Positions 122 through 64,000 are shown, counted from the stretch's first letter. The stretch is 64,000 bases of DNA from Nannocystis bainbridge (GCF_028368995.1 NZ_JAQNDL010000001.1:4192001-4256000), one strand, 5' to 3'. The notes: generated by a model not told the origin, from the letters alone. Made by a program: numbers and translations.

Positions 122-290
122 GGACATGTCGCAAAGAACATGTCCTGAAGCACATCGACCGACTTTCATCGCCCGCAGGATCTACGACGGCGAGCTACCA
201 GGACCTGACCCGAGGGCCAGGTCGCTCGCTGTTCCTGTGACGCTCCGACGGACCTGTCCCGAGGGCCAGGGTGCCCTCGGTTCAGGTCCG
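122..290. repeat. 14-bp-phase GGACATGTCC-type clusters between convergent genes
   Basis: ggacatgtcgcaaa|gaacatgtcctgaa (122-149); ggacctgacccgag|ggccaggtcg (201-224); ggacctgtcccgag|ggccagg (250-270). Confidence 0.8.
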
Positions 291-300
291 TGCGCGCGGC

Positions 301-1047
301 CTAGCGGCGGCGGCGGAGGATGAAGCCGGCGCCGAGGGCCATGAGGACCATCGCGCCGTTCCAGGCGTTGCCGTCGGCGTCGACGGAGCAGCCCTTCTTC
401 TTCTCGACCGGGGGCGGGCCTTCGTTGGCGGAGTCAGGGGTGGAGGAGGAGCCGCCGCCGCCGCTGCCGTCGTTGCCGTCACCGCCGCCGAGGGAGTCGT
501 GCGCGTCCTGCTCGGCCGCGGCCTTGTCCTCGGCGCTCTCGTCCTCCTTGGGCGCCTCGGGCTTCTTGCCGCTCTTGATCAGCTTGATCTTGCCGGAGGC
601 GAGCGTGAGCTCCTTGCCCTTGGCGTTGACCTGCGTGACCTTGATGTCGTAGGTGCGGTTCTTGTTGAAGCCCTTGCGGCCGTCGAGCTCGAGCTCGCCG
701 TAGAACCACTTGTCGCCGGCGAAGTCGTTCTCGTCGTGGCGCCAGACGGACGATCTGTTGCCGTCGAGCTCCTGGAAGAACTCGACGTAGAGCGGGCCGG
801 GGGCCGGGTTCTCGAGCTTGGCGTGGACGTAGGCGATCCAGCGATCCTCGCCGGGGACTTCGTCGAGCGTGTCGACGACGGCCGACTTGCCCTTGGCGGT
901 GATCTTGCCGGTGCCGTCGATCTCGATCGGTGTGGCGCCGACCTTCACCTCGCCCGCGTAAGCCACGGTGCTGCTGAGCGCGGCCAGCGCGAACGCCGAG
1001 GGGAGCGTCAAGCGTCGAAGGAGGTAGTTGCGCGGTGTCTTGGTCAT
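301..1047 (-). CDS. Secreted protein with MYXO-CTERM sorting signal
   Basis: Signal peptide ending AYA; Gly/Ser linker; C-terminus KKKGCSV...hydrophobic helix...RRRR typical of MYXO-CTERM. Confidence 0.85.
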   Translation of the reverse strand: MTKTPRNYLLRRLTLPSAFALAALSSTVAYAGEVKVGATPIEIDGTGKITAKGKSAVVDTLDEVPGEDRWIAYVHAKLENPAPGPLYVEFFQELDGNRSSVWRHDENDFAGDKWFYGELELDGRKGFNKNRTYDIKVTQVNAKGKELTLASGKIKLIKSGKKPEAPKEDESAEDKAAAEQDAHDSLGGGDGNDGSGGGGSSSTPDSANEGPPPVEKKKGCSVDADGNAWNGAMVLMALGAGFILRRRR

Positions 1048-1154
1048 GGCGGTCGGCTCGCAGGGTAGCACAGCCCGCGACGGGGACTATGAACCCCAAG
1101 ATTCCGGCCCCTGCCCCGCGCGCCGGAGCGAAAGCACGTGCAAAACCCGCGCGC

Positions 1155-3970: not shown

Positions 3971-4870
3971 TCAAAGCGCGCCAGGGTCGGCCCACGGCGG
4001 CAGCTCGGCGCGCACGTCGACGGCGACGCCCGTCATCGGATGCGTGAACGCGAGCCGCACGCAGGCCAGCTCGAGCACCTCACCGGCGCCCGCGCGCCCG
4101 ACGACCGACAGCCCCAGCGCCTGCGCGTGCAGCGAGATCTGCTCGGTCGGCGCCCGGCGCAGCTCGACCTCGACCAGCGTCGCGCCGTCCCGCTCGGCCA
4201 GCCGCCGGAACTCGGTGCGCGCCGGCACCGCCTCGCGCTCGTCGGGGCGCGCGAGGCGGACCGCGCCGGTCGCCTTGATCAGGGGTGTCTCACAGACCAT
4301 GTCCCCGGGGACATGTCCTGAAAGCCTGGCTCGGTAGACGCGCAGCGCGTCGAGCTCGGCGAACTTCGGCAGGAAGCTGGAAGTGTCCTGGCCGCGGAAG
4401 GTGAACAGCGCCAGGCCGGCGGCCGCCGGGTCGAGGGCGTGGACGAGGCCGACGTAGGGCCGCAGGACGCCCTCGCGCGCGAGCCGCTGGACCAGCGCCG
4501 GGCTGACCGCGCCGCGGCTGCCCTCGCGGGTGGCCGCCGCCGGCACGCCGTGTGGCTTGTCGACGATGACGCAGTGGGCGTCGCGGTGCACGACGACCAG
4601 GCTGTCGGGGGCGAGCGGCGCGACGCTGGACGCGCCGCGGTAGATCGTGACCCGCTCACCCTCGCGCACGCGCAGGGTCGGGATGCAGCTGCGCACGGTG
4701 CCGATGTAGACGCCGCCGGCGCGGATGAGCTCGGACGCCGGCGCGACCCCGAGGCCGAGCCGGCGCCCGAGCAGCTGGCGCAGGGTCATGCCGTCCTCCA
4801 TCGAGATCACGCGCACGCGCACGCGGGCCTCCGCGGCCTCGGGCTGGCTCGGCTGGTCGGCGCTGCTCAT
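3971..4870 (-). CDS. RluA/RluD-family pseudouridine synthase-like protein with S4 domain, degenerate
   Basis: S4-like N-terminus; IVDKPHG motif I; VHALDPAAAGL in place of HRLD; APTEQISLH in place of GRTHQIR. Confidence 0.75.
   Translation of the reverse strand: MSSADQPSQPEAAEARVRVRVISMEDGMTLRQLLGRRLGLGVAPASELIRAGGVYIGTVRSCIPTLRVREGERVTIYRGASSVAPLAPDSLVVVHRDAHCVIVDKPHGVPAAATREGSRGAVSPALVQRLAREGVLRPYVGLVHALDPAAAGLALFTFRGQDTSSFLPKFAELDALRVYRARLSGHVPGDMVCETPLIKATGAVRLARPDEREAVPARTEFRRLAERDGATLVEVELRRAPTEQISLHAQALGLSVVGRAGAGEVLELACVRLAFTHPMTGVAVDVRAELPPWADPGAL
4281..4322. repeat. In-frame 14-bp-phase cluster (3 units) inside RluA-like gene
   Basis: aggggtgtctcaca|gaccatgtccccgg|ggacatgtcctgaa; encodes SGHVPGDMVCETP. 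Confidence 0.8.
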
Positions 4871-4872
4871 AC

Positions 4873-5018
4873 GGACCTGCTCATCGGGACATGCTCGCTA
4901 CGCCATGCCCTGCGGGACATGCCCGATGGGACATGCCCTTCGGGACATAGACCGCGCGACGACCATGGAAGCTTCGGGTCATGCTCGGGGCGACACGGCC
5001 TGGGGGACATACGATCAC
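4873..5018. repeat. Longest 14-bp-phase array (6 + 3 units)
   Basis: Units start at 4873, 4887, 4901, 4915, 4929, 4943, then 4977, 4991, 5005 (ggacctgctc, ggacatgctc, cgccatgccc, ggacatgccc, ggacatgccc, ggacatagac...). Confidence 0.9.
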
Positions 5019-7373: not shown

Positions 7374-9257
<1,884 letters not shown>

Positions 9258-10808: not shown

Positions 10809-11282
10809 GTGAAGACCAACGCCGCCAGGATCCTCGACAACCTCGGCATCGACTACGAGCTCCGCCCGTACCCCGTCGATGCCGAGCACCTCAAGGCGGC
10901 CGAGGTCGCGGCTCTGGTCGGCCTGCCGCCCGAGCAGGTGTTCAAGACGCTCATCGCCCGCGGCGACCGCAACGGGGTGTGCCTCGCGGTCGTGCCGGGC
11001 GACGGCCACCTCGACCTCAAGGCGCTCGCGCGCGCCAGCGGCGACCGACGCATCGAGCTGGTCGCCCTGCGCGAGGTGACGCCGCTGACCGGCTACGTGC
11101 GCGGCGGCGTCACGGCCCTGGCCGGCAAGAAGGACTACCCGGTGTACCTCGACGAGACGGCGATCCTGTTCGAGCAGATCGCCGTGTCGGCGGGCACGCG
11201 CGGGCTTCAGATCGTGCTGCACCCCGACGGCTACGTGCGCGCGACCCGGGCCACGCTCTGTCCGCTCGTACAGGCCCCTTGA
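10809..11282 (+). CDS. ybaK: Cys-tRNA(Pro) deacylase
   Basis: MKTNAARILD, VFKTL, LDLKALA, TGYVRGG, SAGTRGLQI motifs. Confidence 0.92.
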   Translation: MKTNAARILDNLGIDYELRPYPVDAEHLKAAEVAALVGLPPEQVFKTLIARGDRNGVCLAVVPGDGHLDLKALARASGDRRIELVALREVTPLTGYVRGGVTALAGKKDYPVYLDETAILFEQIAVSAGTRGLQIVLHPDGYVRATRATLCPLVQAP

Positions 11283-11337
11283 GACATGCTCAAGAGGACA
11301 TGCCCGATCGGGCATGTCCGTCCGACCAGGCTCAATC
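11254..11337. repeat. 14-bp-phase array (6 units) spanning ybaK end and convergent gap
   Basis: cgctctgtccgctc|gtacaggccccttg|agacatgctcaaga|ggacatgcccgatc|gggcatgtccgtcc|gaccaggctcaatc. Confidence 0.85.
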
Positions 11338-15060: not shown

Positions 15061-16317
15061 ATGGCCGAGCGCCCCCGCTTTTCCTCCCGCTATCTGGCGT
15101 ACGCGCTCGCGGTCGTGTTCTTCGCCAACTTCCTCAACTACGCCGACCGTCAGGTGGTGAGCGCGCTCGAGGTCGAGATCAAGAGCGCCTTCGCCATGAC
15201 CAAGGCGGAGTTCGGCATGCTGTGGTCGGCCTTCACGCTCGGCTACATGGTGTTCGCGCCGCTGATCGGCTACTGGGCCGGGCGCTACCGCCGGACCATG
15301 ATCTTCGCCGCGTGCGTGTTCATCTGGTCGCTGGCGACGATCGGCTCGGGCATGGCGACCGGCAAGACCGGGCTGTTCGTGTCGCGCTTCTTGATCGGCG
15401 TCGGCGAGGCCGGCTGCCTGGTCATCGGCCCGACGCTGGTCGCGGATTACTTCTCCGACCAGGTCCGCGGCCGCGCGCTGGCGCTGTTCTTCCTCGGCAT
15501 GCCGCTCGGCGGGACCGCCGGTTACCTGATCGGCGGGCTCGTCACCCACTACTCCGGCAGCTGGCAGAACGCGTTTTACGTGGCCGGCGCGCCCGGGCTG
15601 GTGGTCGCGGTCCTGATCGCGCTGCTGGCCGAGCCGCCCCGCCCCGGGTCCTCGGGGACAGGTCCCGAAGAACATGTCCAGGGGGCCAGGTCGTACCTGG
15701 CCCTGCTGCGCAACAAGACGCTGATGCTGATCATCCTCGCGCAGGCGTTCGCGGTGATGATCCTGGTGCCGGTCCTCCACTACAGCATCGAGTTCTTCCA
15801 GAAGGAGCGCGGCATGACCAAGGTCGAGGCCTCGCTGGCGCTCGGGGTGATCGGCCTGGTCGGCGGCCTCATCGGCTCGGGCCTGGCCGGCCTGCTCGGC
15901 GACCGCCTGGCCCGCCGCAGCCGCGGGGCCTACGCGCTGCTGGCCGGCATCGCCTACGCGCTGGCGCTGCCGGCCTTCTTCATCGGCTTCTCCGTGGAGA
16001 GCCGGGCGATCTTCCTGCCGGCCCTGGGCGTCGGCGCGACCTGCCTGTTCGTCTGCATGCCCGCGGTCAACACCCAGATCGCCAACGTCGTGCCCGGCGC
16101 GCAGCGAGCGATGGCCTACGCGCTGGCGGTGTTCATCCTCCACTTCCTCGGCGACATGGCGGCCCCGCCGCTGTTCGGCCAGGTCGCCGACGTGTACGGC
16201 GCGCAGCAGACGTTCCTCGTCACGTCGTCGACGCTGATCCTCGCGGCGGCGTGCTGCTTCCTCGCGGTGCGCACCGCCGAGAAGGACATCAAGAAGTTCG
16301 TCGAAGGCCAGCCGTAG
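15061..16317 (+). CDS. MFS transporter (spinster-like)
   Basis: NFLNYADRQ, RFLIGVGEA, ADYF...RGRALA, HFLGD; about 12 TM segments. Confidence 0.9.
   Translation: MAERPRFSSRYLAYALAVVFFANFLNYADRQVVSALEVEIKSAFAMTKAEFGMLWSAFTLGYMVFAPLIGYWAGRYRRTMIFAACVFIWSLATIGSGMATGKTGLFVSRFLIGVGEAGCLVIGPTLVADYFSDQVRGRALALFFLGMPLGGTAGYLIGGLVTHYSGSWQNAFYVAGAPGLVVAVLIALLAEPPRPGSSGTGPEEHVQGARSYLALLRNKTLMLIILAQAFAVMILVPVLHYSIEFFQKERGMTKVEASLALGVIGLVGGLIGSGLAGLLGDRLARRSRGAYALLAGIAYALALPAFFIGFSVESRAIFLPALGVGATCLFVCMPAVNTQIANVVPGAQRAMAYALAVFILHFLGDMAAPPLFGQVADVYGAQQTFLVTSSTLILAAACCFLAVRTAEKDIKKFVEGQP
15642..15697. repeat. In-frame 14-bp-phase cluster (4 units) in MFS central loop
   Basis: ccccgggtcctcgg|ggacaggtcccgaa|gaacatgtccaggg|ggccaggtcgtacc; encodes GSSGTGPEEHVQGARS. 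Confidence 0.85.
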
Positions 16318-17912: not shown

Positions 17913-20603
17913 CTACGACTCGCCGCGCGGGGGCGCACTCGAGGCCGTTCCGCCGTCGCCCAGGGCCTCGTGGATCCGCTGCGCCAGCGCTGCGCCGACA
18001 CCTTTCACCTCGGTGAGGCGCGCCGGCGCCGCGGCGCGGATCTCCGCGACCGTGCCGAAGTGCTGGATCAGCGCCTTCTTCAGCGAAGGGCCGACGCCCG
18101 GGATGTCGTCGAGCGCGCTGTGCAGCGCTCGTTTGCCGCGGCGCTTGCGGTGGTGCGTGATGGCGAAGCGGTGGGCCTCGTCGCGGATCTGCGTCATCAA
18201 GTACAGCTCGGAGCTGCCGGGGCGCAGGCGGATCGCGTCCTTGGCTCCGGGTACGAACACGCGTTCCGGTTTGACCTCCCACTCCTCGGGCTCGTCGTCG
18301 GGCGTGCGCACCACGTAGTCCTGGTAGCTCTGGCCTGGCCGCTGCGACGCGTCGTCGTCGGGCTCCGCCGGCGCGGGCGCGTCCTCGGCCTTGAGCGAGC
18401 TCTCGGCGTCGATCCCGGCCGTGGCGTCGGCGTAGGTCTTGAACGTGCGCAGCCGCTGCAGCGCCGCCTTGCCGCGCCCGAGGCCCTGGCGCCGCTCCTT
18501 GGCCAGCGAGACGACGTCGACCCCGCCCTCGCCGATCGGGACCCCGAGGTCGTTCAGCGCCGCGATCACCCGCCCGAGCTGGCCCTTGCCGCCGTCGATC
18601 ACCAGCAGGTCGGGCAGCGCCCAGGTGTTCTCGACGACCTCGTCGGCCGCGCCGATCGCGACCTCGGCCTCGGCCTCGGTCGAATCATCTGTCTCTTCGG
18701 ACATGTCCTCGCCGACATTCGCGCGCTTGAGCCGGCGGCCGAGCACCTCGTACATGCTGCGGAAGTCGTCGTTCTGGCGGTCGCCCTGGGCCAGGCCGCC
18801 CAGGCCCCGGATCTTGAAGCTGCGGTAGCGCCGCTTGGCGGCCGCGCCGTCGACGAACACCACCATCGAGGCGACCGTGTCCTGGCCCTGGATGTGGCTG
18901 ATGTCGTAGCACTCGATCACCCGCGGCAGGCGCGACAGGCCGAGGCGCTGCTGCAGGGTGCGCAGGGCCTGCTCGCTGTCCTCGGCGCGGTTGCGGCGCG
19001 AGTTGAAGTTGGAGGCGGCGTTGCGCTGGGCCAGGATCGAGAGCTTCTTGCGGTCGCCGCGCTCGGGCACCAGCAGCGCGACCTTGCGGCCGCTGTGCTC
19101 GCGCAGCCACGACTTGAGCGGCGCCTCGTCGTCGTCGAGCAGCTCGGACGGCAGGAGCACCTCGTCGGGGATCGTCGGCGCGTCGTCGTAGTAGGCGACG
19201 AGGAAGCTGCCGAGCACGTCTGGGTCGGGCAGCTCCATGCCGCGGGCCGAGAACGTGCGCGTACCCATCAGCTTGCCCTGGCGCACGTGCATGACCACGA
19301 ACTCGACCTGGCCGCCCTCGCGGTACATGCCGACGACGTCCTGGTCGAGCGTGACCGAGCCGACCACCTGCTGCCGCTCGAGGCTGGTGCTGATCGCCGA
19401 GAGCTGGTCGCGCAGGCGGGCCGCCGTCTCGAACTCGAGCGCGCCGGCGGCGTCCTCCATCTGCGTGGTGAGGCCGGCGACCAGCTCCTTGTGGCGGCCC
19501 TCGAGGAACAGGCCGACGCCCTTGACCTGCTGGCCGTAGGCGTCGCGGTCGACCGGATAGACGCACGGCGCCGGGCAGCGGCCGATCTGGTGCTGCAGGC
19601 ACGGGCGCTTGCGGTGCGTCAGGGTGTAGTCGGTGCAGGTGCGCAGCTTGAAGTAGCGGTTGACGACCTTCAGCGTGTGGCGGGCGCTCTGGGCCGAGTG
19701 ATACGGGCCGAAGTAGCGGGCGCCGTCCTGACGCATGCGCCGGACCAGCTCGAGCCGCGGCCATTTGGCCTTGGGGTCGAGGCGCAGGACCAGGAACTGC
19801 TTGTCGTCGCGCAGCTTGACGTTGAAGCGCGGCTTGTACTTCTTGATGAGATTATTCTCGAGCAGCAGCGCCTCCTTGTCGTTGGAGGTCACCACCGTCT
19901 CGATGTCGCCGAGCGTGTGCGCCAGGTACGGCACGAACAGCCGCGGGTCGGTGCCGTTGAAGTACTGGCGCACGCGCGCGCGCAGCCGCTTGGCCTTGCC
20001 GACGTAGACCACGTCGCCCTTGCGGTCGCGCATGATGTAGACGCCGGGCAGGTCGGGCAGGCGCTCGACGATCTCCGCCAGCTCCTCGGCCGTGCCGGCG
20101 CGCGGCTGCCACACCGCGTCGGCCTGGATCGCCGCCAGCGCCTCGGTCTTGGCCGAACCGGCGAACCGGCCCGGCGCGTCGAGGTCGGCGGCGCCGCCGT
20201 CGGCGACCTCGAAGCTCTCGAGCACGTCCTCGGTCTCCGGCGCGTACGCCTCGGTCGAGGGCGGCTTCGGGGCGTCGTCCGGATATGGCTTTTGGGACAT
20301 GCCCTCGGGGACATGTCCTGAAGCGCCGGCCGCCGATGCCTTGCGGCCGCCCCGGGACGGCCTCGCGGGCGCCGGCTGGGAGGCGCTCGCGGGCGCCGGC
20401 TGGGGGGCGCTCGCGGGCGCCGGCCCGGAGGCGCTCGCGGGCGCCGGCCCGGCGCTCGCGGGCTCCGCGGCGTCTTCGACATGTGTCCCCGGGGACATGC
20501 CCTCAGGGGCATGTCCCGAAGGACTGGTCACAGCGGAGGCGGCGGGCGGCGCAGCGGGCGGGGCTTCGGGGCTATTCGGGGGTCGTCCTTGACGCGCGGC
20601 CAT
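17913..20603 (-). CDS. uvrC: Excinuclease ABC subunit C with long low-complexity N-terminal extension
   Basis: GIY-YIG (PGVYIM...YVGKAK), Cys cluster, UVR domain, IECYDISH, DGGKGQL, RDEAHRFA, HhH2; start codon uncertain. Confidence 0.95.
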   Translation of the reverse strand: MAARQGRPPNSPEAPPAAPPAASAVTSPSGHAPEGMSPGTHVEDAAEPASAGPAPASASGPAPASAPQPAPASASQPAPARPSRGGRKASAAGASGHVPEGMSQKPYPDDAPKPPSTEAYAPETEDVLESFEVADGGAADLDAPGRFAGSAKTEALAAIQADAVWQPRAGTAEELAEIVERLPDLPGVYIMRDRKGDVVYVGKAKRLRARVRQYFNGTDPRLFVPYLAHTLGDIETVVTSNDKEALLLENNLIKKYKPRFNVKLRDDKQFLVLRLDPKAKWPRLELVRRMRQDGARYFGPYHSAQSARHTLKVVNRYFKLRTCTDYTLTHRKRPCLQHQIGRCPAPCVYPVDRDAYGQQVKGVGLFLEGRHKELVAGLTTQMEDAAGALEFETAARLRDQLSAISTSLERQQVVGSVTLDQDVVGMYREGGQVEFVVMHVRQGKLMGTRTFSARGMELPDPDVLGSFLVAYYDDAPTIPDEVLLPSELLDDDEAPLKSWLREHSGRKVALLVPERGDRKKLSILAQRNAASNFNSRRNRAEDSEQALRTLQQRLGLSRLPRVIECYDISHIQGQDTVASMVVFVDGAAAKRRYRSFKIRGLGGLAQGDRQNDDFRSMYEVLGRRLKRANVGEDMSEETDDSTEAEAEVAIGAADEVVENTWALPDLLVIDGGKGQLGRVIAALNDLGVPIGEGGVDVVSLAKERRQGLGRGKAALQRLRTFKTYADATAGIDAESSLKAEDAPAPAEPDDDASQRPGQSYQDYVVRTPDDEPEEWEVKPERVFVPGAKDAIRLRPGSSELYLMTQIRDEAHRFAITHHRKRRGKRALHSALDDIPGVGPSLKKALIQHFGTVAEIRAAAPARLTEVKGVGAALAQRIHEALGDGGTASSAPPRGES
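20281..20534. repeat. Two 14-bp-phase clusters flanking a 21/24-bp tandem repeat in the uvrC 5' extension
   Basis: Units at 20281, 20295, 20309 and 20479, 20493, 20507, 20521; between them gcgctcgcgggcgccggc x4-5 (PAPASAS). Confidence 0.85.
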
Positions 20604-23420: not shown

Positions 23421-23565
23421 GGGCCTGGCGTGAGGGACATGTCCCACGCGCCAGGGCCTTTGGGACATGTCTAGAAAGACCGCTGGCTTCGGGCGCCGTG
23501 CGTGAGCTGGCGCGCAGTCGCGCCAGGCTCGATGATCGGACCTGCCCCGCGGGACAGCCGAGCTC
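23421..23565. repeat. 14-bp-phase clusters between convergent ssb and ttcA
   Basis: gggcctggcgtgag|ggacatgtcccacg|cgccagggcctttg|ggacatgtctagaa (23421-23476); ggacctgccccgcg|ggacagcc (23538-23559). Confidence 0.85.
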
Positions 23566-24849: not shown

Positions 24850-25106
24850 TTCTGGTGGTTCGCCTTCCACTCGGCGTAGGTCATGCCGTAGACGATCTCG
24901 CGCGCCTCGTCCTGGGTCAGCGGGATGCTCCGCTCCGCTGCGGCCTCCTGGTACCAGCGCGACAGGCAGTTGCGGCAGAACCCCGCCAGGTTCATCAGGT
25001 CGAGGTTCTGCACGTCGGTCCGCTCGCGCAGGTGCGCCACCAGGCTGCGGAACGCGGCCGCCTCGAGTTGCTCGGTCTGCTCCGGGGTCAAGCGCTCGCT
25101 CGTCAT
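24846..25106 (-). CDS. DUF1244 family protein
   Basis: EAAAFR, DVQNLDLMNLAGFCRNCLSRWY, YGMTYAEWK. Confidence 0.88.
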   Translation of the reverse strand: MTSERLTPEQTEQLEAAAFRSLVAHLRERTDVQNLDLMNLAGFCRNCLSRWYQEAAAERSIPLTQDEAREIVYGMTYAEWKANHQK

Positions 25107-25171
25107 GACATGTCCTCTCGTACAGGGTTCTTCGTGCATGTCCTGGCGGCCATGTCGTAAAGAACACAGCG
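25106..25171. repeat. 14-bp-phase array (5 units) immediately upstream of DUF1244 gene
   Basis: tgacatgtcctctc|gtacagggttcttc|gtgcatgtcctggc|ggccatgtcgtaaa|gaacacagcg. Confidence 0.8.
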
Positions 25172-33653: not shown

Positions 33654-33658
33654 GAATC

Positions 33659-33680
33659 GACCTGTCCTCGCGGACAGGTC
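33659..33680. repeat. Two-unit perfect hairpin in a 33-bp convergent gap
   Basis: gacctgtcc-tcgc-ggacaggtc. Confidence 0.85.
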
Positions 33681-33686
33681 ACTGCC

Positions 33687-34800: not shown

Positions 34801-35637
34801 GTGCCTGCCCTGTTTCGCGTCGCGGCTGCCCTCGCGTTCGCCGCTTGCGCCGTCCCCCCGCGCGACATGCCCCCGCAGCCGCCTGCCAGCGCGCCCCCGG
34901 TCGCGCGCTCGCACGGCGCCCCCACCCGGATCCTCGCCGCCCACGCCCAGCTACCGGCCGACGGCGGCCAGCGCGAGTACTTCGGCGTCCCGGTCGGCAC
35001 CCTCCTCTACGTCGTCTTCTCCCGCCCGCTCGACCCCGCCGCCCTGATCCCCGGCCGCTTCGTCGTGCTGGCCCGCGACGGCACCCGCCGCGTCCCGATC
35101 GCCGCCAGCCTCGCCCCCTCCAGCGAGCGCGACGAGCTCCGCGCGCTCGAGCTCGTCATCCCCGCCCCCCAGCGCGAGCTCGTCAGCGTCACCGTCGCCG
35201 GCCAGTTGTTCGACGCCGACGGCCGCGACATCGAAGGCCAGTCCGCCGACGTCGTCCCCGCCGACGCCGCCCCCTGGCCCGTCGCCGCCGAGCTCGTGTC
35301 CGTGGGCACCGACTGCCCCCCCGCCGCGCCCGCCGGCGTGCGCGTGTGGTGGAGCGCCCCGGTGGCCGCGGGTGCCGGCGGCGTCCGTCTCTTGCTCGCC
35401 GACGGCCGCGCCCTCCCGCCGGTCGCCGTCGCCGACGTCGCCTGCGCCCCCGAGCAGCGCCTCGCCGAGCCCGCGCCCGCGTGCGACCCCGAGGACGACA
35501 ACGTCCTCGACTACTGCACCCCTGTCGGCGCCGCGATCGAGCGGATCGAGCTCGACGACGGCGCCGCCCGCGATCGCAGCGGCAGCCTCAGCGCCGCCGG
35601 CTCGCTCCAACTTTCGCACATGTCCTCCGGGACATGA
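34801..35637 (+). CDS. Hypothetical lipoprotein
   Basis: AFAAC lipobox; coding-like GC3; VVFSRPLDP Ig-like segment. Confidence 0.65.
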   Translation: MPALFRVAAALAFAACAVPPRDMPPQPPASAPPVARSHGAPTRILAAHAQLPADGGQREYFGVPVGTLLYVVFSRPLDPAALIPGRFVVLARDGTRRVPIAASLAPSSERDELRALELVIPAPQRELVSVTVAGQLFDADGRDIEGQSADVVPADAAPWPVAAELVSVGTDCPPAAPAGVRVWWSAPVAAGAGGVRLLLADGRALPPVAVADVACAPEQRLAEPAPACDPEDDNVLDYCTPVGAAIERIELDDGAARDRSGSLSAAGSLQLSHMSSGT

Positions 35638-35667
35638 GCTTTACGCCATGACCCGAAGGACACCCAC
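35616..35667. repeat. 14-bp-phase cluster across a stop/start junction
   Basis: gcacatgtcctccg|ggacatgagcttta|cgccatgacccgaa|ggacacccac. Confidence 0.75.
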
Positions 35668-44623: not shown

Positions 44624-44675
44624 CGACCTATCCTTTCAGACATGTTCATTACGACATGTACCCAAGACCTGCAGA
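44624..44675. repeat. 14-bp-phase cluster directly upstream of the paralog 2 start
   Basis: cgacctatcctttc|agacatgttcatta|cgacatgtacccaa. Confidence 0.75.
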
Positions 44676-45520
44676 CCCGCTCCACCTGCCTCGCCCTCGC
44701 CCACCGCCTCGCGCCCGCGTGCACGTCGAGGCGCCGCTCTACCGGCGCCCCGGCCGTCGCATTCCGGCCCCCGCGGACCGCAGCGTCCATGCCCCGCGCA
44801 TGATGCCGCGACCCGACGCCGCGGAGCGCCGTCACGAGCCCGGGCAAATACTCCCTCGCGCCACGGAGGTCCCGGGCCCGCACCGGCAGCCAACCTCGGG
44901 GCGCCAGCGAGGCCATCACAGCGACCGCCCCTCGCGCGCGCTCGTGGACACGCGCCAGCCGAGCCCGATCCGCCACGCCGTGGGCGACCCGTCCGTCGCC
45001 CAGGCCCGCGCGGACCCGCTCACCCCGCGGTCTCGCATCACGCCTCGACCCTCGCGCCCGGCCGCATCACGCACCGCTGCGGGCCGCCGCCGAACCTCGC
45101 CGGCCGGCCCCGCGAACCGTCTCCCCCGTGAAATCTCGGCCCCTTGCACGCGCGCGTCTCGTCTTGGCGACGTGTCCGTCAGGACATGTGATTTTCCCGC
45201 AACGCCCACGAACCCGCGGATGTTCCGGTCGGAGCGCATACGCAGGAGCAGGGGCCCACGATCTCACGAACCGCCGGCGATCGGCGGCTCTTCGTCGCGG
45301 CCTCGCCGGCCCCTCTCACGGCATCCGCGCCGCACCCGGGCCGCGGGGAATTCCACCGCCGTCTTGCGAAGAAAGGTCTCGTCGATCGCACCGCCTGCCC
45401 GCGACGCCGGCCCAGGGAGCGCTGGCCCCCACTTCGCTCGGCTTCGATCCATGACCGCGGCGGCCCCGCCCCGGGCGGTGCGCTGGCACCGAGCGATCAA
45501 AGGTGCCACCGTCACCGGGG

Positions 45521-46990: not shown

Positions 46991-49900
46991 ATGCGCTTTG
47001 AACGCCTGACCGTCGAGCGCTTCGGCCACTTCGAATCGCTCGACATCGACCTGCCCGGAGGGCCAGGTCTCGTCGTCCTTTACGGCCCCAACGAGGCTGG
47101 CAAGACCACCCTCTTGCGGGCTCTCCACGGCCTCCTCTTCGGCGTCGACGAGCGCACCCCTTACGCCTTCGAGTACGACTACCGCGCCATCGCCTTGCGC
47201 GCCGTCCTGCGCGACAGCGCCGGCCAGCGCCTCCACGTCACTCGCCTCAAGAAGCGCAAGGACTCGCTCGTCGGCAGCCTTCACAGCGAAGCTGGCGAAG
47301 TCCCCCTCGACGGCGCTCGCTTCGCCCGTTACTTCGGCGCCATCACCGAAGAGCTCTACCGCGCCATCTTCGGCTTCACCCACGCCGACCTCCAGCAGGG
47401 CTCCGACGTCCTTCAGGTCGCCGGCCTCTCCGAGATCCTCGGCGGCGGCGCCCTCGGCGGCAGCGCCGAGAAGATCCGTGGCGCCCTCGCCGGCCTCCAG
47501 GGCGAGGGCGAGAACCTCTTCAAGGCCAAGGGCAAGAACCCCGCCATCAACCGCGGCCTCACCCAGCTGCGCGACGCCAAGCACGCCCTGCGCGACGCCA
47601 TGTTCGCCCAGCCGCAGTACGCCGCGCTCACCACCAACCTCGCCGTCGCCCGCCACGACGCCGACGCTGCCGAGTCCGAGCTCGCCCGCCTGCGCGAGCG
47701 CGAGGCCCGGCTGCGCACCTTGCTCGGCGTGTTCGAGGACTTTCACGAGCACCTCGGCCTCGTCCGCGCCCTCGCCGATCCGTCGCTGCGCACCGACCTC
47801 GACGAGCCTGCCGCCGAGCGGGCGCGCCAGCGCCACGCCGAGTTCCAGGCCGCCGACAACCAGCTGCGGGCCCTCGACGCCGAGCTCGCCCGCCTGCTCG
47901 CCCGCGCCGACCAGCCCGCCGCCGACCCCGCCCTGCTCGCCGAGGCCGGCGCCGTCGAGCGGCTCGTCCGCCGCGTCGAGACCGTCGCCGAGCAGCGGCT
48001 CGTCGTCCCGCGCGAGCGCGAGCGCCTGGCCCGCGAGACCGACGCCCTACAATCTGTCCTTGCGACCATGTCCCCCGGGACACGTCCCGAAGACCATGTC
48101 CGATGGGTCATCCAGCCGCACGAGCTCGACCGCCTGCGCGCCCTCGCCACCCGCTGGCAGCGCGCCCGCCAGGAGCTCATGTTGTCGGCCCGCGGCCTCG
48201 CCGACGACGAGGCCGAGCTGTCGGCCTTGCGCGCCAGCGTCGCCGAGCTGGCCGCCGCCGCCCCGGACTTCGAGGACAGCGCCCTGCTCGCCGAGCTCGA
48301 GGACGCCCTCGCGCGCAAGGCCGAGCTCGACCGCGAGGAGCTGGCCGTCGCCCGCCTGCGCGCCGACCTCGACCTCGGCCTCCTGCGCCTGCACCCCCCG
48401 CTGCCCGCCGCCGACCTCGCCGCCGTCCCGCTCCCGCGCCCCGCCGACCTCGACGACCATCACGCCCGCAGCCTCGACCTCGAGCGCGAGCGCCGGGCTG
48501 CCCTTTCGGACCTGTCCCGAGAGCAAGCCGACCTCGCCCGCGCCCGCGCCGAGCTCGCCGCCCTCGCCGGCGCCGACTTGCCCGACCTGGACGCCCTCGC
48601 TGCCGCTCGCGCCCGCCGCGACGAGGTCTGGCAGGACGTGCGCCGCCGGCTCCACAGCCACGAGGGCTTCGGCGCCCTGTTCGCCGGCGCCGACGGGGCC
48701 GACCTCGGGCCCGACACCGCCGCCGCCCGCAAGCAGCTCACCCGCCGCTTCGAGCGCGCCCTCGCCGACGCCGACGACCTCGCCGACCGCCTGCGCGACG
48801 CCGCCGACTTGCTGGCCAAAAAGACAGGTCTCTTGCGGCAGATCGACGGCGCCGAGCAGGACGTCGCGCGCGCCGAGGAGCGGGTCGCCGCGGCCGGCCG
48901 CACCGAAGCGCGCTGGGCCGCCGACTGGGCCGCCGTGTGGCGCCCGACCAAAATCATCCCTGGCCCGCCCGCGGCGATGATCCCGTGGTGCCGCGACGCC
49001 GCCGACCTGCGCGAGCACGCCGCCGACCTGGTCCGCCGCGAGGAGGTCGTCCGCCGCCTGCGCCCCGCGATCGACGAGTTCACCGCCCGTCTGCAGCGCC
49101 GCCTCACCTGGCCCGGCGCCAGCCTGCCCGCGCTCGCCCAGGGCCTGCGCGAGCGCGAGCGCACCGCCCTGGCCGCCCGCGCCCGCCTCGAGGCCGCCTC
49201 CGCCCGCCTCGCCGGCCTCGAGAGCGCCGTCGCCCGCGGTCACGCCGCCGACGCCGCGCTCTCGCGCGAGCTCGCCGACCTGCGCGCCAGCCTCTCCGCC
49301 CTGCTCATCACCCTCGGCCTGCCCGCCGACCTCGAGCCCGACGCCGCGCTCGCCCGCATCGATGCCCTCGAGGACATGTCCCAAAAGCTAGCCAACCTCG
49401 AGGCTCGCCGCGAGGCCTTGCACCGCGGCGAGGCCCTGCTCGCCGGCTTCGACGCCGAGTTCACCGCCCTGCTCGCCCGTCTCGGCCGCCCGGCCGACGA
49501 CGCCGCCCCCGAGCACACCGTCGACCGCCTCAGCCGCCGCCTCGCCGAGGCCCGCACCGCCGCCGCCGCCGCCGCTCAGGCCCGCGAGCAGGCCGACGCC
49601 AAGCAGCAGGAGCGCGACGCCCTCGCCGAGACTCGCGCCGCCGCCGTCACCGAGCTCGCCGCCCTCGCCGCCCGCGCCCGCGCCCGCGACACGGCTGAAC
49701 TTTTGGACATGTCCGAACGAGCGCTCCAGCGCGCCCGCCTGCACAAGCGCCAGAGCGAGCTCGCCCTGCGACTGGCCCGCGCTCTCGGCGACGGCCCCGC
49801 CCGCGACAGCTACGACGCCGAGCTCCAGGGCGCCCGCCGCGAGGCCCTGCTCGCCGAGCGCGACGAGCTCGCCAGGCGGATCTCCGACCTCGACCGCCGC

Positions 49901-50543: not shown

Positions 50544-50623
50544 CGACATGTCACTTCGGACATGCCCTTCGGCGCATGCTCCCTAGGACATGCCCTCTTG
50601 GACATGTCCAAGAGGGCACCCGC
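50544..50623. repeat. 14-bp-phase array (6 units) filling the convergent yhaN/asnB gap
   Basis: cgacatgtcacttc|ggacatgcccttcg|gcgcatgctcccta|ggacatgccctctt|ggacatgtccaaga|gggcacccgc. Confidence 0.92.
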
Positions 50624-53793: not shown

Positions 53794-53870
<77 letters not shown>

Positions 53871-53878
53871 GAGTAGCG

Positions 53879-53916: not shown

Positions 53917-53919
53917 GGT

Positions 53920-53993: not shown

Positions 53994-54065
53994 TCGCACC
54001 AGCCTCGCACCGCGAGGCCGAGGCCGACGCCCGGACCGAGCGCCCAGCCTCCCGGTCCGCGGACC

Positions 54066-61449: not shown

Positions 61450-61578
61450 ACGTTGTTATTGCCGAAAGCGGCAGCAACGGCTGGGTTGGCTGGCTCCGAA
61501 CGTGCGGATGCGGAGCCGCGGCGCCGCGGCCTCGCTTGACAGTAATTCGCTGAACTTCCTACCCTGAAGCTCACACGG

Positions 61579-62694
61579 ATGGCCCTGCGACTGATCATCG
61601 AGGACGAAGAGGGCGCGACCACGATCGTGCCGCTCGGAGAAGAGGAGATCACGATCGGTCGGGAGCCAGGGAACACCATCCAGCTCACCGAGCAGAACGT
61701 CTCCCGGCAGCACGCGCGACTCACCCCAGGTTCGGATGGGTGGGTGATCGAGGACCTCGACAGTTACAACGGGGTCCGGGTGAACGGAGTCCTCATCGAG
61801 GGCACGGTCAACCTCAACGAGGGCGACGTGGTGCAGATCGGCGATTACCACCTCGCCATCACCAACAACGCCGAGCAGACGACCCTCAACATCGATCGCC
61901 AGGGAGGCATCGCGGGCACCGATCCGATGCGCGCCGCCCCCAGCATGGATCTGCCGCGGATCCCCGCCAGCGAAGCGGTGGTGATGATCGCTCCGCCGCC
62001 GCCGCTGCCCGATCACTCGCGCGACCGCGACGACGATCGTCACACGGATCAGCCCGCCGAGAACAAGGGTCGCGGCTTGTTGTTCGCGTTGCTCGCGGTG
62101 TTCCTGATCGGTGGCGGACTCGTCGCCTATCAGTTCACGTTGGGCAAGGGTGCCGGCGCCGAGACGCCGAAGGCTCCGAAGGTCGATCCGCCGGCGAAGA
62201 CCGAGGAGCCGCCGCCGCCCGAGCCCAAGCCCGAGGCGAAGGCGCCCGAGCAGGCGCCGCCTGTAGACCCGCCGCTGCCCAACGATCCGGTGCCCGGGGT
62301 GACCGGCGCTCCGCCCGAGGAGCCGCCGCCTGAAAATCCGCTGCCGACCAAGACCGACAAGCCCGCCGTGCCTGCGGTGCCCAAGGGCGAGAAGGTCGTC
62401 AAGCCGCCGGTGACCAAGACCGACAAGCCGCCCGTGCCCAAGGGTGACCCGGTGCAGCTCCTCGAGGACGCGCGCAAGGCCAACCTCGCCGGCAACGCCA
62501 CGCAGGCCTACGACCTGGCCAAGAAGAGCTACGAGATCGACAAGGGCTCGAACGCTCTGGCGCTGATGGGCGCCTCCGCGTGCAAGATGGGCGATCAGGC
62601 CAAGGCCAAGTCGGCCTTCAAGAAGCTGACCGACCCCAACCGCCAGAAGCAGATGGTGTCGGTATGCGCAGAACGAGGCATCGTGCTCGAGTGA
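61579..62694 (+). CDS. FHA domain - TM - Pro-rich - TPR-like protein
   Basis: TIGR...VSRQHA...DLDSYNGVRVNG FHA motifs; TM; C-terminal helical repeat with AC...VC. Confidence 0.88.
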   Translation: MALRLIIEDEEGATTIVPLGEEEITIGREPGNTIQLTEQNVSRQHARLTPGSDGWVIEDLDSYNGVRVNGVLIEGTVNLNEGDVVQIGDYHLAITNNAEQTTLNIDRQGGIAGTDPMRAAPSMDLPRIPASEAVVMIAPPPPLPDHSRDRDDDRHTDQPAENKGRGLLFALLAVFLIGGGLVAYQFTLGKGAGAETPKAPKVDPPAKTEEPPPPEPKPEAKAPEQAPPVDPPLPNDPVPGVTGAPPEEPPPENPLPTKTDKPAVPAVPKGEKVVKPPVTKTDKPPVPKGDPVQLLEDARKANLAGNATQAYDLAKKSYEIDKGSNALALMGASACKMGDQAKAKSAFKKLTDPNRQKQMVSVCAERGIVLE

Positions 62695-64000
62695 GTAGTT
62701 CTTCGGGACATGTCCTGAAGAACAGCCTCTACCTCCTCGCCGCCGCTGCCGCCCTGCTCGCCGCGCCCGTGAGCGCCGCCCCGTGGGAGGACGCCACGGC
62801 GCTCACGATCGGTACCACGGCCGAGTGGACCAACAAGGTCGAGCTCGCCGACATCGACGGCGACGGGCTGGTCGACATCCTGTTCGCCAACGGGGCCGGC
62901 TACGCCTCGCCCGACGATCCCGAGCCGAACCGGGCCTTCCTCAACCGGGGCCCCGGCATGCCGTTCGTCGACGTCAGCGAAGAGGTCTTCGGCCCCGAGC
63001 CTGACTTCACCCGCGCGATCAAGGTGCGCGACCTCGACGGCGACGGCGACCCCGACATCCTGGTCGCCAACACCTTCGAGACTCGGAGCCGGCTCTACCT
63101 CGGCGACGGCCAGGGCGGCTTCGTCGAGGCCAGCGACGACCTCCCGCAGGCTCCGCACAGCTTCGGCGACGTCGAGCTCGGCGACGTCGACGGCGACGGC
63201 GACCTCGACGCCGTGCTCGCCGACTGGGGCCCCGGCGACGCCGGTCAGAGCTCGGGCGTCACTCGTTTGTGGCGCAACGACGGCGGCGTCTTCACCGACG
63301 TCACCACCACCCACATGCCCGACGCTCTGGTCGCCTGGTCGTGGGAGCTCGAGTTCGCCGACGTCGACAACGACCTCGACCTCGACCTGCTCGTCTCGTG
63401 CAAGGCGTGCTCGGGCTCGTACATGTTCGTCAACGACGGCGCCGGCGTGTTCACCGACGCCTCCGACAAGCTGCCGCAGTACGGCAACAACTACGACTTC
63501 GAGGCGATCGATCTGACCGGCGACGGCTGGCTCGACCTCGTCACGATCAACGACGGGCCTGGTGGTCGCGAGCACATCTTCGTCAACGACGGCGCTGGCG
63601 GCTTCGTCGACGCCACCGCCGACCTCTGGCCCGACTTCGAAAACCTCCCTGGCGACGACAACATGCTCGCCTTCCTCGACTACGACAGCGACGGTGACGC
63701 CGACTTCGTGATCGCCGGCCTGTTCGGCAGCGACGACCGCCTGATGCTCAACAGCGGCGACGGCCACCTCGAGGTCGTCGACGCCTTCAAGCCCGCCAAG
63801 TCGATGGGCACCCTCGGCCTCGCCGTCGCCGACCTCGACGGCGACAGGAAGATCGACGTCGTGCTCGCCGAGGGCGAGATCCCCGACAACGCCGACCGCG
63901 TGTTCCTCGGCGTCGACATCGCGGTCGACACCGCCGCCCCGAAGATCTCCCTCGTCACCCTGGTAGACGGCGGCGTGGTCGCGCGGATCCACGACAACAA
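62691..64000 (+). CDS. Secreted FG-GAP/VCBS repeat protein (truncated by window edge)
   Basis: GTG overlapping the upstream TGA; signal peptide; repeated D(I/L/V)DGDGxxD motifs. Not in the supplied ORF track because it has no stop in the window. Confidence 0.85.
   Translation, partial: MSSSSGHVLKNSLYLLAAAAALLAAPVSAAPWEDATALTIGTTAEWTNKVELADIDGDGLVDILFANGAGYASPDDPEPNRAFLNRGPGMPFVDVSEEVFGPEPDFTRAIKVRDLDGDGDPDILVANTFETRSRLYLGDGQGGFVEASDDLPQAPHSFGDVELGDVDGDGDLDAVLADWGPGDAGQSSGVTRLWRNDGGVFTDVTTTHMPDALVAWSWELEFADVDNDLDLDLLVSCKACSGSYMFVNDGAGVFTDASDKLPQYGNNYDFEAIDLTGDGWLDLVTINDGPGGREHIFVNDGAGGFVDATADLWPDFENLPGDDNMLAFLDYDSDGDADFVIAGLFGSDDRLMLNSGDGHLEVVDAFKPAKSMGTLGLAVADLDGDRKIDVVLAEGEIPDNADRVFLGVDIAVDTAAPKISLVTLVDGGVVARIHDN

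Follow-up and report, generated by a model that had tools for sequence, protein, structure and literature searches.

Phased palindrome arrays at gene 3' ends in Nannocystis bainbridge: possible factor-recognised, REP/BIME-like elements

The genome of Nannocystis bainbridge contains 2069 phased arrays of a short palindrome, each 2 to 10 units long, which are concentrated directly downstream of stop codons, chiefly between convergent genes. Judged from the genomes compared, the palindrome family seems to be restricted to Nannocystis and close kin. It also appears to be undescribed, as literature searches found no published description that matches a 14-bp-phased palindrome family. The explanation adopted here, tentatively and at somewhat less than even confidence, is that these Nannocystis-specific interspersed elements are factor-recognised gene-end elements resembling REP/BIME.

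A sequence-only reading of the window (the whole stretch of DNA analysed, 64,000 nucleotides) had described nine perfect copies of GGACATGTCC as far above chance. All nine were found (at 4309, 16348, 18699, 20309, 23435, 49372, 49705, 50600 and 62706), whereas 100 dinucleotide-preserving shuffles gave a mean of 0.06 and a maximum of 1. With up to two mismatches, the window has 85 matches grouped into 60 clusters. Among the 25 within-cluster spacings, 17 are 14 bp and four are 28 bp, in agreement with the 14-bp spacing claimed for neighbouring units, and the other four are 49, 45, 16 and 52 bp; the interval from 23435 to 23463 is indeed 28 bp. An estimate of about 45 clusters was generous, since about 31 matches with up to two mismatches are expected by chance in 64 kb (from composition alone, scaled from the genome figure); a stricter call retains 16 phased arrays and 13 isolated units with at most one mismatch. 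The features of the window, including five arrays that are as originally described (those beginning at 4873, 11254, 25106, 48050 and 50544), are listed below; strands are those of genes, and none is assigned to the palindromes.

122..145: two-unit array in a convergent gap, 12 bp past the stop of the gene ending at 110; phased pair retained in both relatives that could be anchored (2/2)
4295..4318: two-unit array within the RluA-like pseudouridine synthase gene 3971-4870 (minus strand), encoding GHVPGDMV
4873..4956: array of about six units in the gap separating two tandem minus-strand genes, 5015-5983 and 3971-4870
11254..11337: array occupying the whole convergent gap 11282/11332 and including a perfect 24-bp palindrome (11296-11319); one 14-bp unit more in relative G010
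15656..15679: two-unit array within the MFS transporter gene 15061-16317 (plus strand), in its central loop
16340..16371: perfect unit in a hairpin with a 15-bp stem, 23 bp past the MFS gene stop; near-identical in 5/5 species, the single differing position being in the N. bainbridge genome
18699..18708: single perfect unit within uvrC 17913-20300 (minus strand), encoding EDMS
20295..20318: two-unit array at the uvrC start, flanking a 24-bp tandem repeat on one side
20493..20516: two-unit array, an inverted pair, on the opposite side of the 24-bp tandem repeat
23435..23472: span of three units, the middle one decayed (28-bp spacing), in the convergent gap past the gene ending at 23392
25106..25171: array of about five units adjoining the start of gene 24846-25106 (minus strand); left part, including spacers, kept in 5/5 species
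33658..33681: CCTG/CAGG-variant inverted pair occupying the convergent gap 33653/33687
35616..35639: array of two units across the stop of gene 34801-35637
40399..40422: two-unit array within the CarboxypepD_reg repeat gene 38653-41562 (minus strand), encoding GHVSEDMY
44638..44661: first of two two-unit arrays in divergent gap 44575/45521
45168..45191: second two-unit array of divergent gap 44575/45521
48050..48119: array of about five units within the AAA_27/SMC-like ATPase gene 46991-50542 (plus strand); translation QSVLATMSPGTRPEDHVRWVIQPH
48508..48517: single one-mismatch unit within the same ATPase gene, encoding DLS
49372..49381: single perfect unit within the same ATPase gene, encoding EDMS
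49705..49714: single perfect unit within the same ATPase gene, encoding LDMS
50544..50623: array of five to six units occupying the convergent gap 50542/50623; 1 to 5 units in 5/5 species, with CATG cores that stay in phase and spacers that are unrelated
62706..62715: single perfect unit, its palindrome lengthened by the flanks (gttcttcg / tgaagaac)

In the whole genome (11,048,555 bp in 5 contigs, 71.5% G+C), GGACATGTCC is about 100-fold over-represented: 956 perfect copies are present versus 9.5 expected from base composition, with 3160 one-mismatch copies versus 331.5 and 8718 two-mismatch copies versus 4995.8. Near-copies form 2655, 1235, 953, 461, 193 and 88 pairs at distances of 14, 28, 42, 56, 70 and 84 bp, and roughly 0 to 70 pairs at each other distance up to 100 bp, which are the autocorrelation peaks at multiples of 14 bp that had been anticipated. 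The decamer first proposed as the unit is real, but a 14-bp inverted repeat, TGTCC-N4-GGACA, is the more basic word. It has 1987 perfect copies versus no more than 19 at other spacings in either half-site order (N0-N3 and N5-N12 have 0 to 16 copies each, N3 and N5 being about 100-fold rarer than N4); copies with at most one mismatch number 6245, about one per 1.8 kb. These modules abut head to tail with a period of exactly 14 bp, and their junction is GGACATGTCC, of which CATG is the best-conserved core. Profiles around the 956 units and 1987 modules show the phased unit alone, with 0.15 to 0.28 bits per position in the spacers.

Such strict N4 spacing favours a live alternative, somewhat less probable than the reading adopted, in which a putative lineage-specific dimer would bind each TGTCC-N4-GGACA and polymerise cooperatively along abutting modules, serving at gene ends as a nucleoid, topological-insulator or roadblock element. 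With 9 bp between their centres, the half-sites would lie on the same helix face. Each dimer would be turned by about 120 degrees; the calculation behind this (14 bp as 1.33 turns) is correct as arithmetic, the rotation itself being something that we only infer. Also in favour of a DNA-bound lattice, units fit the consensus independently of one another with weak covariation, flanks are mirror-symmetric, loop words are strand-symmetric (TTCG 63, CGAA 61), and spacers are fixed in length and free in sequence. The architecture would fit a putative cooperative tandem operator: MetJ met-boxes and omega/ParG-type heptad arrays consist of abutting symmetric units that are exactly spaced for cooperative dimers, and the Nannocystis units are likewise short, symmetric and abutting, with degenerate sequence in exact register. 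Those operators occupy one or few promoters or centromeres per replicon, whereas there are about 2000 Nannocystis arrays, mainly at gene ends; the Nannocystis binding protein is hypothetical, which counts against a lattice. The original interpretation stands in that the pattern is real, non-chance, strictly phased and sequence-specific; cooperative DNA-protein polymerisation is alive as a candidate only.

The earlier reading missed the tie of the arrays to gene 3' ends. According to a crude in-house gene caller (not curated annotation), arrays were located in 631 of 1430 convergent gaps (44%; 2.51 arrays per kb of gap sequence), 627 of 4399 tandem gaps (14%; 0.77 per kb) and 95 of 1458 divergent gaps (6.5%; 0.21 per kb), a 12-fold difference in density between convergent and divergent gaps. 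Arrays in tandem gaps lie at a median of 34 bp past the preceding stop codon (mode 10-20 bp) and 173 bp before the next start, and in tandem gaps of at least 200 bp, 386 arrays are closer to the stop and 115 closer to the start. Intergenic DNA has a 10-fold higher density of units, and for three phased CATGs its density exceeds that of confident gene interiors 139-fold, with long arrays kept out of genes. This exclusion weighs against a lattice on DNA, though a bound filament could be harmful within genes too, and the 10-20 bp post-stop peak and 12-fold difference would require an extra assumption of it. That assumption could be a transcript-end role or promoter intolerance.

Within gene calls lie 510 of the 2069 arrays and 336 of the 956 perfect units, and Pfam domains were found in 5/5 of the window host genes checked. 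The interiors of 4780 confident genes contain 218 perfect units versus a mean of 23.8 (maximum 28) in 10 within-gene synonymous-codon permutations that kept the protein; the corresponding figures are 351 versus 19.1 for 14-bp pairs and 577 versus 17 for TGTCC-N4-GGACA, enrichments of about 9- to 34-fold. Codon shuffling, which the sequence-only reading had named as a means of refutation, therefore did not refute it. Serine codons following Asp-Met are TCC in 59% of cases versus 14% overall. The array at 40399..40422 aligns without an indel to a paralog and to the ortholog in G005, with point substitutions only, and was created in situ by three amino-acid-changing substitutions; at least one in-gene array arose through point substitutions rather than insertion. 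The in-gene enrichment and phasing, the serine codon preference and this in situ origin are all points for a DNA lattice.

Save for the phasing, they also recall HIP1 (GCGATCGC), a lineage-specific cyanobacterial palindrome that is orders of magnitude above expectation in and between ORFs; the Nannocystis word is similarly far above expectation, including within ORFs (956 versus 9.5; 218 versus 23.8). According to one report, HIP1 is over-represented and conserved within and between ORFs, has a periodicity at 10-90 kb rather than at base-pair scale, and is of unknown function, with roles in chromosome structure proposed (PMC5861425). A comparable CATG-centred process of methylation, repair or recombination could raise the word genome-wide, with arrays as secondary slippage of a self-complementary word. 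It would suit the 100-fold over-representation, the abundance within ORFs with synonymous-codon distortion, the conservation of CATG and the origin by point substitutions, and the genome has one apparently orphan D12-class adenine methyltransferase. However, this enzyme is also present in low-copy genomes (G011, G012, G017 and G019, with 4-25 copies) and so does not track the lattice, and neither Vsr nor a C5 methyltransferase was found in the genome. HIP1 overlaps sites of known orphan methylases, whereas no lineage-matched methylase was found for the Nannocystis lattice. We know of no repair bias that reads a 14-bp register across units. Since Nannocystis units are tiled in base-pair register, and since their arrays, unlike HIP1, are strongly biased to gene 3' ends, with units denser in intergenic DNA and linked to stop codons, a process of this kind is improbable.

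Rickettsia palindromic elements, which are insertions of about 100-150 bp translated in frame in protein loops or linkers, resemble the Nannocystis palindromes in that the latter are also translated in real proteins (the MFS central loop, UvrC and the AAA_27 ATPase). In contrast to such insertions, the in-gene Nannocystis copies are 10-70 bp, and at least one derives from point substitution without an indel.

Comparison with four syntenic relatives (48 units only) indicates that core bases are held while the 4-bp spacers vary freely at constant length: the C, T and G of CATG have identities of 0.83-0.98, spacers 0.50-0.61 and codon third positions 0.82-0.86, and in-gene units have 0.91-0.95, about the same as coding DNA generally. 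At least one unit was retained in 52 of 58 array-by-relative comparisons and a phased pair in 33 of 58. Arrays grow and shrink by 14-bp steps, with a 14-bp indel seen in G010. Species with completely rewritten arrays have an unchanged consensus, a constancy despite turnover that again suits a DNA lattice. All ten same-genus genomes (10/10) contain 43-805 copies versus 0-7 of a reversed-word control; two sister genera have 25 and 7 copies, and eight other families 0-8. What had been presented as a feature of the window is real, but its extent is that of a genus-wide family.

The interspecies indel, the roughly geometric run lengths, the avoidance of promoter gaps and a 4-fold enrichment of identical adjacent spacers (4.2% of 1562 triples versus 1.1% in the null) would be expected if the arrays were functionless, slippage-prone 14-bp minisatellites persisting where tolerated, downstream of genes. 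Against this, spacers diverge while cores are conserved, the majority of neighbouring units and spacers are not copies of one another, one consensus spans 10/10 same-genus genomes, and in-gene arrays arise despite amino-acid changes, at 9- to 34-fold over the permutation control. A neutral by-product is thus quite improbable, and with only 4.2% of adjacent spacers identical, the claim that units diverge at constant spacing, unlike slippage repeats, holds.

The family is also genus-specific in the manner of an uptake signal for natural transformation, with a near-perfect module every 1.8 kb or so, in genes and at gene ends, where inverted pairs could double as terminators. Neisseria DUS and Pasteurellaceae USS resemble it as genus-specific words at about 1 per kb that occur within genes, where one frame is preferred, and downstream of them as inverted pairs. 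These known words are asymmetric, unphased and single or paired, whereas the Nannocystis word is palindromic and forms phased arrays of up to 8-10 units, which makes an uptake function very unlikely.

The interspersed, palindromic and mainly intergenic copies might suggest a non-autonomous mobile element, either a MITE or a REPIN mobilised by RAYT, but this is largely refuted and scarcely credible. The copies have no common sequence outside the 10-bp unit, one array arose without any indel, and no exact matches were found among viral contigs. The Y1 (RAYT) transposase, PF01797, had 0 matches in the genome (G000, 90% complete), although the same search matched 6 of 14 control genomes. REP copies have a consensus over the whole element, including a conserved head tetranucleotide (GTAG/CGTC). 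A REP/REPIN-RAYT system was rejected, there being neither a whole-element consensus (only the phased unit) nor a Y1 transposase, and a MITE was rejected for the lack of an indel at 40399-40422 relative to the paralog and G005 ortholog and of a defined length (2 to 10 units).

In the Nannocystis genome, hairpins are enriched at gene 3' ends in general. Perfect stems of at least 8 bp occur within 100 nt past the stop in 13.4% of array-free regions (n=2315), compared with 3.5% of divergent gaps (n=1192) and 1.8% of coding DNA (n=1571), and in 41% of post-stop regions with arrays (n=1127). That generic hairpins share the placement of the arrays points to a single-strand function and counts against a DNA lattice. 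Six window arrays form stable stem-loops with fold z-scores of -3.0 to -6.7. Flanks of the 956 perfect units are no more complementary than column composition predicts; among the 1987 perfect modules, 4.9% have flanks that lengthen the stem by at least 5 bp, versus 1.4% in the null, and 4.6% of adjacent units are exact inverted copies, versus 2.0%. In an Rfam covariance-model scan of the window the sole match was a tRNA (53794-53867), and no curated RNA family matched the palindrome arrays. Canonical terminators with a hairpin and T-run are rare, being found in 3.3% and 4.3% of 3' regions versus 1.6% of background. At 737 sense-oriented tandem-gap arrays there is no U tract 3' of the array and no strand polarity: downstream composition equals mirrored-upstream composition, and T is at most 0.36 everywhere and at background beyond the neighbouring unit. 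An intrinsic (Rho-independent) terminator was therefore rejected, despite the stable hairpin. The earlier view of the palindromes as a candidate undescribed code is borne out as far as REP/RAYT, intrinsic terminators and MITEs could be tested. RNA hairpins, which it had listed only as an alternative, fare better: with the arrays tied to 3' ends where ordinary hairpins are also enriched, a REP-like hairpin reading is at least as likely, with weak covariation a point against it.

The likeness to E. coli REP/BIME lies in number and, for the arrays outside genes, in placement. Both families comprise hundreds to thousands of short imperfect palindromes that tend to follow gene 3' ends between convergent or co-oriented genes, with few in promoter gaps, and the Nannocystis palindromes form tandem arrays and fold into hairpins like those of BIME-2. 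Proposed roles of REP/BIME also include the binding of proteins (gyrase, IHF). In contrast to REP/BIME, with a period of about 35-40 bp, the Nannocystis unit is 10 bp and its period 14 bp, strict in phase; RAYT, consensus past the unit and spacer constraint are lacking, covariation is weak, and short copies are plentiful within genes, where they arise by substitution. Counting against a gene-end hairpin are the little covariation, the absence of a U tract and of polarity, the strand-symmetric loop words, and the strong in-gene enrichment of the module, which the model does not predict; a function through hairpins only would tolerate 3- and 5-nt loops, whereas N4 outnumbers N3 and N5 about 100-fold.

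A preprint (bioRxiv 10.64898/2026.03.23.713779) presents REPs as dual terminators and stabilisers, with attenuation of read-through and protection of 3' ends proposed. If the Nannocystis arrays are gene-end elements of this kind, a lineage-specific trans-acting factor would recognise the TGTCC-N4-GGACA module, because both the consensus and the N4 spacing are maintained across genome and genus without any compensatory change. The short copies within genes would result from that same sequence-specific pressure and be tolerated only as long as they are weak. The arrays may work as bidirectional elements, in which transcription from either side would yield hairpins (stems of at most about 10 bp, loops of 3-4 nt), and these hairpins, a module-bound protein or both may halt or attenuate read-through and also protect the 3' end, as in E. 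coli REP/BIME.

All nine perfect copies of the palindromic decamer GGACATGTCC in the window lie where the sequence-only reading had placed them, compared with a mean of 0.06 and a maximum of 1 copy in 100 dinucleotide-preserving shuffles. Matches with at most two mismatches number 85 and group into 60 clusters, within which 17 of the 25 spacings are 14 bp, four are 28 bp and four take other values. The phased lattice described earlier is borne out, but its count of about 45 clusters was inflated by chance matches, because composition alone gives about 31 matches with at most two mismatches in 64 kb (scaled down from a genome-wide composition estimate). Under stricter calling, 16 phased arrays remain, along with 13 isolated units that have no more than one mismatch. 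The whole assembly (11,048,555 bp in five contigs, 71.5% G+C, with the window at 4192001-4256000 of C1, contig NZ_JAQNDL010000001.1) holds 956 perfect decamers where base composition predicts 9.5, 3160 with one mismatch (331.5 expected) and 8718 with two (4995.8 expected). Autocorrelation of positions over the whole genome has the predicted peaks at multiples of 14 bp: pairs 14, 28, 42, 56, 70 and 84 bp apart number 2655, 1235, 953, 461, 193 and 88, and all remaining distances up to 100 bp have roughly 0-70 each. Around the 956 perfect decamers, phased neighbours are strong at ±14 bp and fade at ±28 bp and ±42 bp, and each neighbouring unit is better conserved in the half turned towards the anchor than in the other.

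The inverted repeat TGTCC-N4-GGACA occurs in 1987 perfect copies genome-wide, compared with 0-16 copies for the same arms at N0-N3 and N5-N12 spacings, and the opposite order of half-sites gives at most 19 copies at every spacing except N0, which is the decamer itself. With up to one mismatch allowed, there are 6245 such modules and 4116 decamers. The module outnumbers the decamer and its N4 spacing is strict, and the basic word is therefore an inverted repeat of 14 bp, made up of 5-bp arms around a 4-bp spacer whose length does not vary. An array consists of modules that abut without a gap; the decamer, previously taken to be the repeat unit, is real and phased but is the junction of two modules. 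The spacers are non-random (CTTC, CGAA and TTCG are commonest), and their words are strand-symmetric even in sense-oriented tandem gaps, where only one strand should be transcribed (63 TTCG, 61 CGAA). A preference for even numbers of units, hinted at by span counts, was dropped, as contiguous run lengths are roughly geometric.

Folded as single strands, six arrays of the window fold well (z-scores of -3.0 to -6.7), as a palindromic lattice of any kind must; the statistics expected of selected stems are largely missing. Complementarity of the flanks around the 956 perfect decamers is no higher than column composition predicts, and only about 3% of them are long extended palindromes; flanks extend the stem by at least 5 bp in 4.9% of the 1987 perfect modules, versus 1.4% in a partner-shuffled null. 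Among adjacent non-palindromic units, 4.6% are exact inverted copies (null 2.0%) and 4.2% exact direct copies (null 2.1%), and 4.2% of adjacent spacers are identical (null 1.1%). Most units therefore seem to follow the consensus independently of their neighbours; slippage copies and perfected palindromes do exist, as minorities. Neutral slippage is quite improbable as the origin of the lattice.

The decamer is abundant throughout the genus, with 43-805 copies in each of ten same-genus genomes (0-7 for a reversed-word control); two sister genera have 25 and 7 copies, and eight other families of the class have 0-8. Density is high in Nannocystis genomes of 11-13 Mb, about fourfold lower in species with smaller genomes, and near background in the sister genera. 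In comparisons of 200 kb, the 14-bp peak is present in a distant congener, G009, but weaker (10 pairs versus 49 in the source genome), and absent from a sister genus, G011. When the exact two-unit pattern was searched for in bacteria and archaea, with each species represented by one genome, 75 of the 78 loci found were labelled Nannocystis, Nannocystaceae or Myxococcales, and three were strays. No Rfam family covers any array of the window. The module, written in three ways, was not found in open-access PMC and bioRxiv literature; within the same sources, titles and abstracts on Nannocystis palindromes, repeats or intergenic regions, on myxobacterial REP elements and on repeats more widely contain no description of the lattice. 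Literature matches to the decamer, among those listed, mainly concern the p53 half-site consensus and are otherwise unrelated to bacterial repeats. GGACATGTCC matches, letter for letter, the half-site consensus of the p53 response element of vertebrates, almost certainly by coincidence, and p53-site scanners will flag Nannocystis genomes for this reason. The lattice is thus real and genus-wide and, with nothing matching found in open-access PMC or bioRxiv, apparently undescribed, as the sequence-only reading had suggested.

Placement relative to genes was determined with a codon-usage gene caller built for this analysis (8113 genes, 84% coding) rather than curated annotation. Of the 2069 phased arrays, convergent gaps hold 716, tandem gaps 737 and divergent gaps 105; a further 510 fall within gene calls and one sits at a contig edge. 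At least one array is present in 631 of 1430 convergent gaps, 627 of 4399 tandem gaps and 95 of 1458 divergent gaps, with densities of 2.51, 0.77 and 0.21 arrays per kb of gap, respectively. Arrays in tandem gaps lie a median of 34 bp from the upstream stop codon (mode 10-20 bp) and 173 bp from the next start; in tandem gaps of at least 200 bp, 386 arrays are closer to the stop and 115 closer to the start. Arrays are found on all contigs and both replichores, over-dispersed at 15-70 per full 250-kb bin, with no ori/ter gradient visible in such bins of the five-contig assembly. The 44% occupancy of convergent gaps and the roughly 6200 near-perfect modules amount to a very high copy number. Service as a DNA-uptake signal is very improbable.

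In sense-oriented tandem gaps, no U tract was found on the 3' side of arrays and the downstream sequence mirrors the upstream sequence, which rules out canonical intrinsic terminators. The ratio of G.U to A.C is 1.26 on the sense strand of tandem gaps, and 0.86 and 0.58 on an arbitrary strand of convergent and divergent gaps, differences that compositional skew can explain. Hairpin-plus-T-run terminators were identified in 3.3% of the 2594 3' regions without arrays and in 4.3% of the 1260 with arrays (1.6% in divergent-gap controls), frequencies too low to show whether arrays and canonical terminators exclude each other. Two textbook intrinsic terminators, each a GC hairpin with a T run and one with an upstream A tract, are present in the window at ends without lattice arrays:

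53660-53700, intrinsic terminator at a gene end
53878-53918, intrinsic terminator at a tRNA end

Canonical terminators are therefore usable by the organism, though rare genome-wide. Directly after tRNA-Asp (53794-53870) and its canonical terminator is a perfect 18-bp tandem repeat (53920-53993, 4.1 copies, 100% identical), which may be an integration scar or hotspot. With three relatives, BLAST alignments are interrupted here (at about 53922-54058), so the region is variable between species.

Perfect stems of at least 8 bp occur in 41% of array-bearing 3' regions (n=1127) and 13.4% of array-free ones (n=2315), compared with 3.5% of divergent-gap midpoints (n=1192) and 1.8% of coding controls (n=1571). 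No other hairpin-capable structure at the gene ends of this genome thus comes near the arrays in frequency, and this is the main argument for a role like that of REP/BIME elements. The tentatively preferred reading is that the lattice is a factor-recognised, REP/BIME-like gene-end element acting on transcripts from both directions, in which hairpins, a bound protein or both would act on transcripts arriving from either side.

Arrays also occur within genes, and all five host ORFs checked in the window are real genes (an RluA-like synthase, an MFS transporter, a CarboxypepD_reg repeat protein, an AAA_27/SMC-like ATPase and UvrC). The copies are translated as peptides such as GHVPGDMV, GHVSEDMY, EDMS and ATMSPGTRPEDHV. 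In the 4780 confident genes, a serine following Asp-Met is encoded by TCC in 59% of cases versus 14% overall, and the codon preceding, in Asp-Met context, ends in G in 72% versus 40% overall. The in-gene signal survives the codon-preserving control that the sequence-only reading had called for, here ten synonymous-codon permutations that kept every protein: the interiors of these genes contain 218 perfect units (23.8 permuted), 351 pairs at 14 bp (19.1 permuted) and 577 perfect modules (17 permuted). The ratio of intergenic to gene-interior density is 10 for the unit and 7.5 for the module, and rises to 50 when the module is extended by two bases at either end, and to 139 for a trio of phased CATGs; long arrays are excluded from genes despite the enrichment of short copies there. 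The 4780 proteins carry the footprint GHV..DM 29 times (0.4 expected) and HV..DM 68 times (4.2 expected). A HIP1-like drive is unlikely as the explanation of the lattice.

The array encoding GHVSEDMY clearly arose in place: the peptide aligns without an indel to GYVSEETY of the ortholog in the congener G005 and to GFVSAERY of the paralog, and within its two units the array differs from that ortholog by three point substitutions, each of which brings the sequence closer to the motif and changes an amino acid. In-gene arrays were accordingly rejected as insertions for this case; the case in the MFS loop is ambiguous, with a length difference of 3-4 codons in a variable loop. Only one of two tandem paralogs (38653-41562 and 41636-44575), proteins of about 970 amino acids with CarboxypepD_reg repeats, PDZ domains and 52% amino-acid identity, has gained a two-unit array. 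In L087, the G009 ortholog of the AAA_27 gene, the site of the in-gene array is occupied by a longer insertion in which the peptide HNLSQQPAS is repeated; the linker of this protein is therefore a site of repeat expansion in another species too. In-frame coding tandem repeats are present at 8769-8957 (27/51-bp, 5.9 copies, 92% matches) and 23056-23333 (a long GGC-rich triplet repeat and a 63-bp repeat), and probably encode low-complexity protein linkers.

The window is syntenic with four congeners at about 88-90% nucleotide identity, with 0.91-0.93, 0.93-0.95 and 0.82-0.86 at codon positions 1, 2 and 3, and 0.78-0.83 in the remaining aligned intergenic DNA. Over 48 units, identity is 0.83-0.98 at the C, T and G of CATG, 0.67-0.93 at the remaining unit positions and 0.50-0.61 in the spacers. 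The convergent gap after the AAA_27 gene contains an array in all five species, with in-phase CATG cores, 1-5 units and unrelated spacers; at another array, the congener G010 has gained one 14-bp unit. The array at 16340-16371 and the left part of that at 25106-25171 are frozen or nearly so in all five species. In 58 anchored comparisons of an array with a relative, at least one unit is kept in 52 and a phased pair in 33. With cores retained while spacers and arrays change, the consensus and register are therefore stable genus-wide while single arrays are rewritten, a pattern that may reflect a shared trans-acting reader; a single such reader is therefore predicted. An autoregulated reader gene was sought beside the 105 divergent-gap arrays, and there was no obvious candidate next to these long gaps (median 498 bp). 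Arrays are hotspots for alignment breaks and 14-bp indels between species, and they leave recognisable peptides in proteins. Between two arrays upstream of uvrC is a 24-bp tandem repeat of 4-5 copies (20346-20467), absent from G005, G001 and G003 and present in part in G010. Adjacent paralogous genes (11332-12909 and 12918-14462) share about 73% nucleotide identity and produce cross-matching BLAST alignments in all four relatives.

A mobile element is scarcely credible as the source of the lattice: no Y1/RAYT transposase was found in the genome by a search that was positive in six of 14 control genomes, and viral contigs gave no exact match to a three-module pattern. Neither Vsr nor a C5 methyltransferase was found in the genome. 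An apparently orphan D12-class N6-adenine DNA methyltransferase (C1:3591256-3592350, L132/L133), with no restriction gene evident beside it and no PDB relative by sequence, is conserved in Nannocystaceae and in two further families of the class (57-96% identity). It was rejected as a partner of the lattice, being present also in G011, G012, G017 and G019, genomes with just 4-25 copies of the decamer.

That the lattice is bound as double-stranded DNA by protein, as first proposed, is possible though doubtful. Such binding explains the strict N4 spacing better than does the gene-end element, and also better explains why units are independent, why strands are symmetric and why copies occur inside genes, but explains the proximity of arrays to stop codons less well. 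In a rather unlikely, more specific form, the lattice would be a punctuation code in double-stranded DNA, on which putative Nannocystis-specific protein dimers polymerise along abutting modules and a filament at gene ends insulates convergent transcription units. Each TGTCC-N4-GGACA would be bound by a dimer, with three dimers per four helical turns; the filament would serve as a roadblock or supercoil barrier; and the pressure to create sites would be so strong that codons and amino acids are rewritten, with GHVxxDM(S) peptides as the footprint.

Few unexplained features of bacterial genomes are older than short interspersed palindromes such as REP/BIME, HIP1 and uptake sequences. The Nannocystis lattice unites traits that are usually separate, resembling REP in its placement at gene ends, HIP1 in the pressure on its word inside genes, and a cooperative operator array in its exact register. 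Nannocystis is culturable, and several complete genomes are available. The trans-acting reader, if found, would give direct access to the way such repeats are maintained, and would also show how gene ends are marked in a high-G+C bacterium that has almost no canonical terminators.
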